DNA from: an uncultured delta proteobacterium
Lineage (GTDB): Bacteria; Desulfobacterota; Syntrophorhabdia; Syntrophorhabdales; WCHB1-27
Length of the DNA stretch: 64,000 nucleotides
Assembly: GCA_963810935.1 (NCBI GenBank)
Contig: CAWEPK010000016.1
Location: 96,001 to 160,000, forward strand
Direction: 5' to 3'
Shown here piece after piece: positions 30,001 to 33,000 of this stretch (position 1 is its first letter; each line of letters begins with the position of its first letter). The position numbers are program-made.

Positions 30001-33000
30001 AGGGCATCATGCACATAGGTCAGCGCGATATCGCCTGGATCCGCATATCCAAGCAGGCGGTCGAGAAGGGCTTTACGCTGGCCGACATCGGAAAGATCAT
30101 CCATGCCAAGTACCATCAGGACTTTGGCGCGATATTCGACAAGGTCCAGGTGAAGATCTACACGGAAGAGGCGAAGGTCCAGGAAGTGCTCGCGAAGGCG
30201 CGCGCCTCGTACAAGCACAGGGATGACCGCGTCGAGAACATGACCGACGAGACGACGGACACCTTTTACTCCTGCACGCTCTGCCAGTCCTTCGCGCCGA
30301 ACCACGTCTGCGTGGTCGCACCGGAGAGGACGGGTCTGTGCGGGGCTTACAACTGGCTCGACTGCAAAGCCTCCTACGAGATCAACCCTGAGGGGCCGAA
30401 CCAGCCTATAGCCAAGGGCGAGGTACTCGACGCCAGGTACGGCCAATTCAAGGGCGCGAACGACTTCGTCTTCAAGGCATCGAGACAGAAGGTCTCCAAC
30501 GTAAGCTTTTACAGCCTCATGGTCGATCCTATGACGACCTGCGGCTGCTGCGAGTGCATCGCAGCCGTTCTCCCCATGGCGAACGGCATTATGACGGTCG
30601 ACCGCGACTATACAGGGATGACCCCGTGCGGCATGAAGTTCACTACACTTGCCGGCTCCGCGGGCGGCGGCGCGCAGGCGCCGGGCTTCCTGGGACACAG
30701 CAAGTACAACGTCACGCAGAGGAAGTTCCTTAAAGGCGACGGCGGCCTCCTGCGGCTCGTGTGGATGCCCAAGAAGCTGAAAGAAGACCTGCGCGAGCGG
30801 CTGCAGAAGCGCGCGGAAGAGCTGGGCGTGCCCGATCTGCTCGACAGGATCGCTGACGAGACGGTAGCGACGACGGAAGAGGAAGTCATCGCATACTGCA
30901 CTGAGAAGGGGCATCCGGCGCTGACAATGGAATCGATTATGTAGAAAGGGCAAGGCTGCCAGGCAGCGCGTACGCGCTTTAATAGGGAAGATGGTGTAAT
31001 TCCATCACGGACCCGCCGCTGTAAGGGGGGACGATGGCGCAAGATCCACTGGGTAATCCCGGGAAGGTGCGCCGGAGGATGATCCCCGAGTCAGAAGACC
31101 CGCCTGGCAGTTCTTACAGACACCCTCCTCGAGGCCTGGGAGAGGAAGCTTAAAAAAAGGAGACTGCTATGGGACTCACAGGTATCCAGATATTCAAGCT
31201 TCTTCCCAAGACCAACTGCGGGGAATGCGGTTACCCCACCTGCCTTGCCTTTGCCATGGCGCTCGCTGCCGGCAAGGCCGAGCTGGAAAAATGCCCGACC
31301 CTCCCGGATGCGGCTAAAGAGCAGCTTGGAGAGGCGAGCGCGCCCCCCATCAGGCAACTCACGATAGGGACGGGCGAATACGCAGTGAAGGTCGGCGGAG
31401 AGACGGTCATGTTCCGCCATGAGAAGACCTTCTTTAATAAGCCCGGTCTGGCCGTCCTTATTACCGACGGGATGGACGACGCGGAAGTGGCCCGCAAACT
31501 CGGTAAAATGGCCGAGCTGCAGTACGAGCGCGTCGGCCTCAACCTGAGGCCGGAGCTGGTTGCCGTTAAAGAAGCAGGCAACAAGACCCGCTTCCTGGAA
31601 ATCGTGAAAAAAGTGGCGGCGACGCCATACAGCATTATCCTTATGTCTTTCGACCCGGCCGCCATGAAAGAGGCGCTCGATATCGCCAAGGACAAAAAGC
31701 CGCTCATTTACGCAGCCACCAAGGACAACACGGACGCGATGGGCGCCTTGGCGAAAGAGTACGCCTGCCCCCTGGCAGTCAAGGGTGAGGGCCTGGAGGC
31801 TCTGGCCGCCCTGTCCGAGAAGCTCATCGGTATGGGCGTCAAGGACCTGATTCTCGACTCCGGCACCAGGACCGTGAAGGAAGCCTTCTCCGACCAGATC
31901 ATGATGAGGAGGGCCGCGCTCCAGTCGCGCTTCAAACCCTTGGGCTTCCCGACTATCGCTCTGCCCTGCGAGATGACGGACGACGTAATGAAAGAGACGC
32001 TGATCGCCTCCCTGTTCATCGCAAAATACGGCGCGATCATAGTCCTGTCCGACTTCGCGGGCGAGAACGTTTTCCCGCTCCTCCTGGAAAGGCTCAACAT
32101 TTACACGGACCCGCAGCGCCCGATGACAACGGATCAGGGCATCTACCCCATCAACAACCCGGACGCGTCCTCGCCGGTCCTTGTGACCTGCAACTTCTCG
32201 CTGACGTACTTCATAGTCACCGGTGAGATAGAGAACTCGCGGGTGCCCACGTGGCTCTGCGTTATGGACACGGAAGGCCTCTCGGTCATGACTGCCTGGG
32301 CCGCCGGCAAGTTTGTCGCCGACACGGTCGGACCCTTCATCAAGAAGTCCGGCATCGCGGACAAGGTCAACCATAAGAAGCTGATAATCCCGGGTTACGC
32401 GGCCGGTATCCTGGGCGACCTCGAAGAAGAGCTGCCCGGGTGGGAGATAACGGTCGGCCCGAGGGAAGCGGCGCACTTACCGGCATTTTTGAAGAACAGG
32501 TGAAAATACCTAACCGAACGGGAGGAAACATGCTGATCATTGGTGAGAACCTGAACGTCATAAATAAGAAGATCGGCCAGGCATTCAAGGACAGAGACCC
32601 GAAGCCCATCCAGGAGATGGCCGAGGCGGAGACGAAGGCCGGCGTCGATATCATCGACCTCAATCTCGGTCCCGCGCGCAAGGCAGGCGCCGAGCTGATG
32701 GCGTTCGTCGTCAAGACCGTGCAGGAAGTCACGGACACCACGCTTTGCCTCGATACGACGAACATCGAGGCGATAGAGGCGGGACTCGCGGCCTGTAAGA
32801 ACCGGCCGCTCATAAACTCCATCTCGGCGAGGCCGGAGAGGATGGAGGCGCTGATCCCCATCGCCAAGAAGTACAACGCCCCGTTCATTGCCCTCTGCCT
32901 CGGCGTAGACGGCATACCGCGCGACGCGAACGAGAGGGGTCTCCTTGTCGCGGAGCACCTTGCCAAGGCAGCAGAGTACAGCGTGTCGGAAGAAGACATG

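Follow-up and report, generated by a model that had tools for sequence, protein, structure and literature searches.

Gene Content of the acs Locus

The window analyzed here is a 64-kb stretch of DNA. It contains the genes of the acs block in the order acsD-cooS-acsB-acsC-acsE, with a cobalamin riboswitch located between acsB and acsC. Gene identities were assigned using NCBIfam and Pfam profiles:

25794..26735, plus strand: acsD, which opens the acs block and encodes the small (delta) subunit of the corrinoid Fe-S protein (NF003377, 534.7 bits; PF03599)
26746..28692, plus strand: cooS/acsA, CO dehydrogenase catalytic subunit (TIGR01702, 631.2 bits; PF03063)
28740..30944, plus strand: acsB, acetyl-CoA synthase (NF040764, 1069.8 bits)
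31169..32503, plus strand: acsC, encoding the large (gamma) subunit of the corrinoid Fe-S protein, which binds the corrinoid and 4Fe-4S (NF003195, 635.7 bits; PF04060 and PF03599)
32530..33405, plus strand: acsE, methyl-THF:corrinoid Fe-S protein methyltransferase (NF005719, 229.6 bits, below the cut-off of 259; PF00809)

The order cooS-acsB-riboswitch-acsC-acsE given in the preliminary description agrees with these profile matches, but acsD, located upstream of cooS, had been omitted there. Because acsD precedes the riboswitch, the small subunit of the corrinoid Fe-S protein should be beyond its reach. The assignment of AcsC to the AcsC/CdhE gamma subunits is based on a match to NF003195 far above the cut-off of 306, covering residues 1-443, and on the combination of an N-terminal Fe-S domain with a CdhD-type TIM barrel (PF04060 and PF03599). 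The true start of acsE is the ATG at 32530, found 26 nt past the acsC stop codon and preceded by its own Shine-Dalgarno (SD) sequence, GGGAGG. The acsC gene is present as a single copy in the genome, which also encodes B12 synthesis.

Cobalamin Riboswitch Between acsB and acsC

Exactly one Rfam match was found in the whole window at gathering thresholds, namely RF00174 (Cobalamin) on the plus strand. The match is untruncated, and its covariance-model score over the whole aptamer is 117.8 bits against a gathering score of 31.5 (E 6.6e-29). Thus, the earlier statement that a full aptamer fills the gap between acsB and acsC holds, and the E-value of 1e-30 reported with it agrees with the whole-genome search (9.7e-31). 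The following elements were located:

30944..31121, plus strand: cobalamin riboswitch aptamer with peripheral P6 extension (RF00174, model positions 1-189 of 189)
30956..30964 and 31102..31110, plus strand: the two strands of P1, read from the sequence
31011..31015, plus strand: L5 (ACCCG), read from the sequence

The first aptamer position touches the acsB stop codon TAG (30942-30944). In the alignment to the RF00174 model, the core motifs GGGAA, GGUG..CC, and CUGUAA are all present, and the B12 box reads UCCACUG against the consensus GCCACUG. The B12 box and core (consensus GGGAA, GGUG..CC, CUGUAA, GCCACUG, AGYCAG-AGACC) also show up as invariant columns in the alignment of relatives. Like RF00174 members of the AdoCbl type with a P6 extension, the RNA matches the aptamer in full and carries, directly past P1, a hairpin whose loop is complementary to L5. 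Judged by its sequence, the RNA between acsB and acsC is confirmed as a genuine cobalamin riboswitch, probably of the AdoCbl type.

The gene starting at ATG 31169 being acsC by its profile match, the B12 sensor does precede a gene for a B12-dependent protein, as had been proposed. By its position, the riboswitch is placed to govern the user of B12, AcsC, and not the supply of the cofactor. The preliminary description also placed acsE under its control, which may hold, although that gene has an SD of its own.

Distribution of the Riboswitch in Related Genomes

The riboswitch was found directly upstream of acsC, on the same strand, in 17 of the 20 acsC-bearing relatives of the family, with scores of 104-128 bits over all 189 positions. 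In every relative carrying it, the riboswitch starts 0-4 nt past the acsB stop codon. The 17 riboswitch-bearing genomes span four genera, between whose AcsC proteins identity falls as low as 76%. All three relatives lacking the riboswitch belong to one genus (g3); in these genomes, acsC is preceded by a spacer of only 12-18 nt with the same SD, so the gene works without the riboswitch.

No riboswitch adjoining acsC was found in any of the 55 assessable genomes of the three sister families; the genome G064, whose contig ends at acsC, is outside this count. Both results extend earlier counts pointing the same way (present in 7 of 8 family relatives, absent in 11 of 11 genomes from other families of the order). 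In a phylum sample with 93 other acsC-bearing genomes, the only riboswitch adjoining acsC among the 150 matches listed was that of G000 itself; 203 weaker matches lie beyond this list. An nhmmer search with our own aptamer HMM identified the aptamer in 9 of 80 named acsC loci, all with at least 75% identity to the query. The aptamer was not found in the other 71 loci, including records from Syntrophorhabdaceae, Desulfobacterales, Dehalococcoidia, Actinobacteria, and Myxococcota, although this search could miss weak copies, since one of the four divergent control riboswitches, all of which were detected, scored only 22 bits. Literature searches, here as for the preliminary description, yielded no report of a cobalamin riboswitch before acsC in this operon; supplementary regulon tables of surveys were outside their scope.

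P13-type Hairpin and Putative Kissing Loop

The region between the aptamer and the acsC start codon contains the following elements:

31123..31145, plus strand: P13-type hairpin, conserved in 18 of 18 sequences
31123..31129, plus strand: P13 5' strand, CC-CUCCU
31130..31137, plus strand: L13 loop, CGAGGCCU, with the kissing-loop motif CG-N-GG
31138..31145, plus strand: P13 3' strand, GGGAG-A-GG
31157..31163, plus strand: SD sequence AAGGAGA, the same in each of the 18 sequences and separated from the acsC ATG by 5 nt

Among the relatives, the hairpin follows the pattern CUCCY, loop CG-N-GG-YY, GGGAG. L5, L13, P13, and the SD are all conserved as invariant elements among the family sequences: the CG and GG of L13 and the CCCG of L5 do not change, while the middle base of L13 is free to vary and L5 as a whole reads RCCCG (consensus UCCCG). 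For P13 together with the kissing loop, 95.2% of 166 cells are paired, compared with 34-54% in slid controls. The putative L5-L13 interaction comprises four pairs, each possible in 17-18 of the 18 sequences and free of covariation; a fifth pair is unsupported. No double-sided changes were found in the 10 pairs of P13 and the kissing loop, nor any compensatory change in the 29 pairs of the long-range helix described below, and the argument for all three structures is therefore one of conservation and compatibility.

The preliminary description had noted CCCUCCUC (31123-31130) and AAGGAGA (31157-31163) upstream of acsC, and both are present in the sequence. The reading of the two as anti-SD and SD of a typical translational OFF platform is not supported in that form: CCCUCCUC is the 5' strand of P13. 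Stabilization of P13 by ligand binding through the kissing loop has been established experimentally (PMC10653944); with ligand bound, the P13 5' strand would therefore be unavailable to the SD, the reverse of what an OFF design requires.

The plus strand shows no terminator-like site from 31121 to 31169, and the element thus presumably controls translation. In total, four other RF00174 riboswitches are present in the same genome, scoring 96.6-112.3 bits. One lies before a cob operon, two before cbiM-type cobalt transport loci (one of these with a CbpB rSAM protein), and one before an aldehyde:ferredoxin oxidoreductase gene. All four lie in 5' leaders and end in a GC hairpin with a U run, i.e., an intrinsic terminator, which the acsC copy lacks. 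As part of a polycistronic acsD-cooS-acsB-acsC-acsE mRNA, the riboswitch would control AcsC synthesis post-transcriptionally, most likely at translation initiation.

Predicted Long-Range Pairing With the acsC Coding Sequence

Structure prediction connects the P13 region with the beginning of the acsC coding sequence (CDS) through two segments:

31140..31151, plus strand: purine-rich 3' part of P13 with its flank, GAGAGGAAGCUU, predicted to pair with acsC codons 10-13 (MFE and RNAalifold consensus)
31196..31226, plus strand: acsC codons 10-19, AAGCUUCUUCCC..GACC..GCGGGGAA, putative 3' arm of the pairing with the P13 region (structure prediction, codon comparison, recoding test)

The resulting platform:CDS helix of about 23 bp appears in the MFE structures of all four genera as well as in the RNAalifold consensus (29 pairs, 11 sequences), where it should be noted that the encoded protein puts its own constraint on the CDS arm and that chance alone readily pairs purine-rich with pyrimidine-rich strands. 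In all 18 sequences, the free ensemble lies 5-16 kcal/mol below the ensemble in which P13 is forced. The P13 hairpin and the predicted long-range helix with acsC codons 10-19 thus compete in these models.

Not one of the 18 genes differs synonymously at codons 10-13, in contrast to Leu codons 3, 26, 32, and 39, each of which occurs with 3-4 synonyms. The exact codon 10-13 run was found in only 4 of 16 out-of-family genes. Synonymous recoding in eight species produced, per 300 recodings, 5, 28, 3, 18, 12, 161, 27, and 8 variants as stable as the wild type or more; the wild-type codons thus mostly fold more stably than their recodings, with one species (G007) giving no signal. Single-sequence folds of the whole region were uninformative, with z-scores of -0.98 and +0.87.

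When three sequences of genus g4 were folded without the CDS, UCUCCU of the P13 5' strand paired with AGGAGA of the SD, and the probability of the SD being unpaired was 0.00. This pairing was rejected as the sole apo structure, being replaced by the long-range helix once codons 10-21 are included. Pairing of the P1 3' strand with the RBS, as in an ON switch of the add type, was likewise considered. The RBS reads GGAGACUG, similar to AAGACUG of the P1 5' strand, and the duplex reaches -15.5 kcal/mol in G003 and G006, where it ranks first of 178 windows. In G000, its value is -11.8 kcal/mol, compared with -21.2 kcal/mol for P1, and it ranks 25th of 176. Among the remaining sequences of g1, g2, and g5, it occupies ranks 5-86, and in g4, ranks 107-228. 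The duplex was rejected as a general mechanism.

Direction of Switching

We tentatively propose that the element acts as a translational B12-ON switch. With a corrinoid bound, the kissing loop between L5 and L13 would lock P13, the platform:CDS helix would dissolve, and the pyrimidine-rich anti-SD strand would be kept from the SD, allowing AcsC to be made. Without a corrinoid, the far more stable long-range helix would form and tie up the translation initiation region, reducing AcsC synthesis; in genus g4, pairing of the P13 5' strand with the SD may serve as an alternative apo structure before the CDS becomes available. Synthesis of the apo-protein would in this way be matched to cofactor supply, complementing the four presumably OFF, terminator-type riboswitches. 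Together with the single acsC and the encoded B12 synthesis, an ON-regulated sink and an OFF-regulated supply would form a coherent homeostasis.

The energy required to open positions -17 to +13 leans toward activation: 7 species need more of it in the free state and 2 in the P13-forced state, while 9 show no difference. RBS accessibility leans the opposite way: forcing P13 lowers it in 7 species and raises it in 3. The probability of the SD being unpaired is nearly the same in both states, with means of 0.43 (free) and 0.39 (P13-forced). The thermodynamic models yield no consistent sign. Two further points count against activation: the long-range helix starts at +28, outside a 30S footprint, where a block on initiation is not readily explained, and all natural corrinoid riboswitches tested so far but one repress (PMC10653944).

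That record of repression also favors an OFF switch built from the same P13 and kissing loop, which we consider somewhat unlikely. In the free state of such a switch, the P13 3' strand and its flank (GGGAGAGGAAGCUU, an SD look-alike) would hold codons 10-13 (AAGCUUCUUCCC). Ligand binding would lock P13 and thereby free CUUCUU to pair with AAGGAG of the SD, so that less AcsC is translated. This logic would be that of the other riboswitches of the genome, which have terminators and are presumably OFF, and whose P13 3' strand and flank would act as anti-terminator; the copy before the cob operon (contig C9) shares the CG-N-GG loop with the acsC riboswitch, and its flank can, by eye, pair with the 5' strand of the terminator. 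When the extended P13 was forced in G000, the MFE structure indeed paired AAGGAG with CUUCUU, and the probability of the SD being unpaired decreased from 0.42 to 0.30. However, with only the P13 core forced, the flank of G000 still held codons 10-13 and CUUCUU was not released, and in g4 these codons remained held in both states by the flank or by a second GGGGAGG past an insertion. The pairing itself is weak, a stem of 6 bp with one G-U over a 35-nt loop, while the mean effect on the SD is small and reversed by the opening-energy measure. Moreover, repressing the only corrinoid protein of a central pathway at plentiful B12 has no obvious benefit that we can see.

The near-constancy of the RBS between states in nearest-neighbor models, set against a large conserved structural switch, would suit a role in RNA fate, a reading that we regard as improbable. 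Here, the ligand would decide between P13 and the platform:CDS duplex; a processing site, for example for a double-strand-specific RNase or for the entry of Rho, would appear or vanish with that choice and set the ratio of the acsD/cooS/acsB to the acsC/acsE transcript segments. The C-rich, G-poor composition of J1/13 and the P13 5' strand is compatible with such a role, as is the operon-internal position of the element, which leaves no space for its own promoter (promoter prediction gave no candidate site from 30000 to 31169). Against it stands the invariant, strong SD, located close to the ATG and within the switching region. Finally, the loss of the riboswitch in g3, with a short spacer and the same SD remaining, might suggest a decaying or functionless copy that happened to land between acsB and acsC. 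Such a copy would hardly retain full-length, high-scoring aptamers in 17 genomes of four genera despite the divergence of AcsC, nor invariant L5, L13, P13, and SD elements, and this explanation is very improbable.

Comparison With Known Corrinoid Riboswitches

Cobalamin riboswitches are textbook feedback repressors of genes for B12 supply or for B12-independent isozymes. The usual RF00174 riboswitch differs from the one analyzed here, which is operon-internal, directly abuts the stop codon of acsB, and precedes the gene for a corrinoid-dependent protein instead of genes for synthesis, uptake, or a B12-independent isozyme. Translational cobalamin riboswitches include those of E. coli btuB and env8HyCbl. 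In OFF switches of this type, the RBS lies in the 3' strand or loop of P13 and is thereby sequestered by the kissing loop, whereas the SD here (31157-31163) is located 12 nt downstream of P13 (31123-31145). The P13 3' strand is itself SD-like, yet no start codon follows it. A further difference is the predicted second partner of the P13 region within the coding sequence. A bulged kissing loop such as the one predicted here has been described for env8HyCbl (PMC10653944).

EutX/Rli55 (eut) and AspocR (pdu) of Enterococcus and Listeria are regulatory RNAs with B12 riboswitches that switch on B12-dependent pathways. They act in trans, as sRNA or antisense RNA, through a sequestered regulator and an ordinary terminating riboswitch. 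As proposed for acsC, their B12 sensor lets a B12-dependent function be expressed when the cofactor is available, but the acsC sensor lies in cis, directly before the gene for the cofactor-binding subunit. In an uncultured family of Syntrophorhabdales, a B12 sensor lies in cis before a cofactor-consuming protein that belongs to the central pathway of carbon and energy metabolism.

The one known activating corrinoid riboswitch, according to Procknow et al. (2023; PMC10653944), is that of Alkalihalobacillus halodurans cobT, in which P13 excludes the OFF structure. The logic proposed for acsC is the same: the kissing loop stabilizes P13, P13 excludes the shut-off structure, and the ligand activates. 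As described there, the cobT riboswitch forms part of a 5' leader and acts on transcription (P13 versus terminator); cobinamide is its best ligand, and the gene under its control serves biosynthesis. In contrast, no terminator-like site lies between the aptamer and the acsC ATG, P13 would compete with SD pairing or a long-range helix, and activation is a prediction from sequence. The acsC element may therefore resemble the cobT riboswitch in function without belonging to its type.

The acsC element is possibly, then, a natural B12-activated translational riboswitch, which would make it the second known case of activation and the first not built on a terminator, metering the corrinoid-binding subunit of the Wood-Ljungdahl pathway from inside an operon, with codons 10-19 as the alternative partner of its kissing-loop hairpin. 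If so, it would provide a direct RNA means of matching an abundant apo-protein to its cofactor and, being mechanistically different from cobT, a usable blueprint for biosensors. If it represses instead, the question would be why the only corrinoid Fe-S protein of the cell is cut at plentiful B12. With either sign, the predicted pairing with codons 10-19 and the frozen synonymous sites offer a testable example of a riboswitch that uses coding sequence in its switch.

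Cobalamin Riboswitch in the acs Gene Block

In a scan of the whole window at the gathering threshold (31.5 for this model), the sole Rfam match was RF00174 (Cobalamin), which scores 117.8 bits with E 6.6e-29 and aligns over model positions 1-189 of 189. The surrounding ORFs were named by their NCBIfam and Pfam matches.

Features of the acs block
23702-24469, cooC-like ATPase (PF01656, 53.1 bits)
24472-25359, folD (NF010765, 450.8 bits, below the cut-off of 501)
25794-26735, acsD (NF003377, 534.7 bits)
26746-28692, cooS/acsA (TIGR01702, 631.2 bits)
28740-30944, acsB (NF040764, 1069.8 bits)
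30944-31121, + strand, riboswitch aptamer (RF00174, 117.8 bits)
31169-32503, acsC (NF003195, 635.7 bits; PF04060 and PF03599)
32530-33405, start corrected, acsE (NF005719, 229.6 bits, below the cut-off of 259; PF00809)

On these matches, the coordinates and gene order of the preliminary description are right; it can be added that acsD, encoding the small subunit of the corrinoid Fe-S protein (CFeSP), heads the acs block, ahead of the riboswitch rather than behind it. Between folD and acsD are a small ORF of about 70 aa (25370-25590, starting with MADYNYEEK) and about 200 non-coding nt (25591-25793); this gap (25370-25793) is likely the promoter region of the block. Downstream of acsE, HdrC-, HdrB-, and ArsR-like genes are followed by a gene (35253-39662) whose 1469-aa product fuses HdrA-like modules to GltD-like ones (NADPH-dependent glutamate synthase small subunit) and contains several Fe-S domains.

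The first aptamer position is touched by the acsB stop codon TAG (30942-30944). Helix P1 is formed by 30956-30964 and 31102-31110, and loop L5 (ACCCG) is located at 31011-31015. Consensus scans found no terminator-like site on the + strand from the aptamer to the ATG at 31169 and no sigma-70-like site in 30000-31169.

In total, five RF00174 copies were found in the studied genome (4.06 Mb, 21 contigs). At the end of four stands a GC hairpin with a U run after it; of the five, only the acsC copy lacks a terminator. One of the four precedes the cobU-cobT-cobQ-cbiB-cobD-cobB-cbiX/C-cbiM operon and two precede cbiM-type cobalt transport loci; thus, B12 synthesis is encoded under conventional terminator-type riboswitches. 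The two cobalt-related copies on contig C7 (97536-98009, locus L006) are arranged back to back, one on each strand: the first leads to a gene for the peptide-modifying radical-SAM protein CbpB and cbiMNQO, the second to cbiM, an OprB-type porin, and unannotated genes. Within contig C8, 771178-773624 (locus L007 279-2725), the remaining copy (100.4 bits) carries a clear intrinsic terminator and stands in front of a full-length aldehyde:ferredoxin oxidoreductase (676 aa, PF02730 and PF01314), an unusual gene for a B12 regulon.

Distribution among Relatives

The acsC gene was found in 21 of 22 genomes of the family (six genera; named WCHB1-27 in the preliminary description). The aptamer immediately precedes acsC, in the same orientation, in 17 of 20 family relatives (104-128 bits), as the preliminary description held from a smaller sample, and starts 0-4 nt past the acsB stop in all 17. 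Aptamer and ATG are separated by 47-53 nt at 11 loci and by 106-146 nt at six loci of genus g4 (L020-L023, L026, and L030). The longer distance comes with 60-100 nt of perfect GC-rich hairpins inserted between helix P13 and the Shine-Dalgarno sequence (SD), e.g., CUCUAGCGAGC-ACG-GCUCGCUAGAG, with a second GGGGAGG copy behind them; they look like small mobile repeats.

G008, G009, and G010, the three relatives lacking the riboswitch, make up the whole sample of genus g3. Two have an acsB-acsC spacer of 12 or 18 nt with the same SD as riboswitch-bearing relatives. The third, G009, retains a 115-nt spacer (L024 1386-1500) that contains a hairpin and ends in a stretch similar to the g4 platform. 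This tail suggests that the riboswitch was lost by deletion, probably leaving the spacer as its scar.

The order was sampled with 81 genomes from four families, including 56 outside-family genomes with acsC. Comparison of acsC and RF00174 coordinates, together with Rfam scanning of 19 loci outside the family, revealed no riboswitch adjoining acsC in the 55 assessable genomes (one contig ends at the gene), as the preliminary description held for the other families of the order. In three sister-family genomes, an RF00174 match lies on the other strand at a distance of about 5.5 kb from acsC (G052:C2:142335-142475 and G074:C8:56410-56550, both model positions 45-169; G059:C16:58290-58491, full length). 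In the phylum sample (151 genomes, 93 others with acsC), no match adjoined acsC except that of the studied genome among the 150 best matches listed (203 weaker ones lie beyond). An aptamer HMM, which detected 4 of 4 control riboswitches, found the element at 9 of 80 named acsC loci and at none of the other 71; the nine records are titled Syntrophorhabdales, Syntrophobacterales, or Syntrophaceae bacterium, or uncultured delta proteobacterium.

Literature searches for cobalamin riboswitches with CFeSP, Wood-Ljungdahl, or corrinoid protein/methyltransferase, and for riboswitches with acsC or Syntrophorhabdus, found no report of the acsB-riboswitch-acsC arrangement, supplements aside, in line with the preliminary description. 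In the passages covered, riboswitches are all assigned to B12 synthesis or transport (PMC6239172; PMC5651825; PMC12456013; 10.1101/772582), and none is mentioned beside CFeSP or Wood-Ljungdahl genes (PMC4285132; PMC9600662). The acsC riboswitch is real, conserved, lineage-restricted, and in an unusual regulatory position for its class; its mechanism is partly resolved. Contributed here are a count across the family, the finding that one genus lost the element, the contrast in terminators inside one genome, and the likely long-range pairing to the coding sequence (CDS) with its frozen codons.

P13 and Its Probable Pairing with acsC Codons

In an alignment of 18 sequences, P1 is directly followed by an invariant set of motifs: CUCC(Y), a C-G-N-G-G-Y-Y loop, GGGAG, and the SD AAGGAGA. 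The hairpin (31123-31145) occupies the position of P13, and its loop CG-N-GG is complementary to CCCG of L5 with one base bulged, a kissing-loop geometry also known from env8HyCbl and from the cobT switch of A. halodurans (PMC10653944). Therefore, CCCUCCUC, previously taken for the anti-SD of a typical translational OFF platform, is the 5' strand of P13. Counted over P13 plus the kissing loop, 95.2% of 166 cells are paired vs. 34-54% with a slid partner; no double-sided change was seen in this alignment.

Minimum free energy folds from the P1 end to codon 21 place the P13 region in a helix with acsC codons 10-19 for 18 of 18 sequences from all four genera, including g4 despite its insertions. 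The helix of the relative G003 has 23 bp: CUCCCCGC with GCGGGGAG, GGUC with GACC, GGGA with UCCC, and GGAAGCU with AGCUUCU. Over the same span, the free ensemble lies 5-16 kcal/mol below that with P13 forced. RNAalifold on 11 distinct g1, g2, and g5 sequences gave the same helix (29 pairs, none with a compensatory change) as well as a local hairpin of the SD with codons 6-7.

Within the first 44 codons of 18 genes, no run of degenerate codons other than 10-13 (AAG CTT CTT CCC) is free of synonymous change; Leu codons 3, 26, 32, and 39 each use 3-4 synonyms. The exact run occurs in only 4 of 16 out-of-family genes, and codon 12 is CTC in one of three g3 genes. Compared with random synonymous recodings, codons 10-21 of the wild type form the more stable fold with the platform in seven of eight species (5, 28, 3, 18, 12, 161, 27, and 8 of 300 recodings were as stable or more), the species sharing ancestry. 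The long-range pairing is likely, though not proven, to be real.

Direction of Regulation

The start-site region is, as a general rule, less translated in its more structured state. Ligand binding is established to stabilize P13 via the kissing loop (PMC10653944), so the corrinoid-bound state would have P13 formed and the free state would have the P13 region in the long-range helix with codons 10-19. When three g4 sequences were folded without CDS, the P13 5' strand paired with the SD (probability of an unpaired SD 0.00); as long as the CDS is lacking, the unbound RNA of these sequences would thus pair these two instead. In the bound state, every upstream candidate for covering the ribosome-binding site (RBS) would be locked, an argument for B12 raising AcsC production (ON).

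An OFF response could arise if P13 formation released CUUCUU of codons 11-12, which is complementary to AAGGAG. Forcing P13 lowers the probability of an unpaired RBS in seven species but raises it in three, and the mean for the SD is 0.43 free vs. 0.39 forced. Opening of -17..+13 costs more energy in the free state in seven species, more with P13 forced in two, and the same in nine (means 9.72 vs. 9.07 kcal/mol), so that the two models disagree on the sign. We lean toward ON because of the rule on start-site structure and, physiologically, because of the single acsC copy, the encoded B12 synthesis, and the resulting arrangement of sink ON with supply OFF. The sole activating corrinoid riboswitch in print, according to PMC10653944, is transcriptional. 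Pairing of the P1 3' strand with the RBS was rejected as the general mechanism, holding only in some g2 species.
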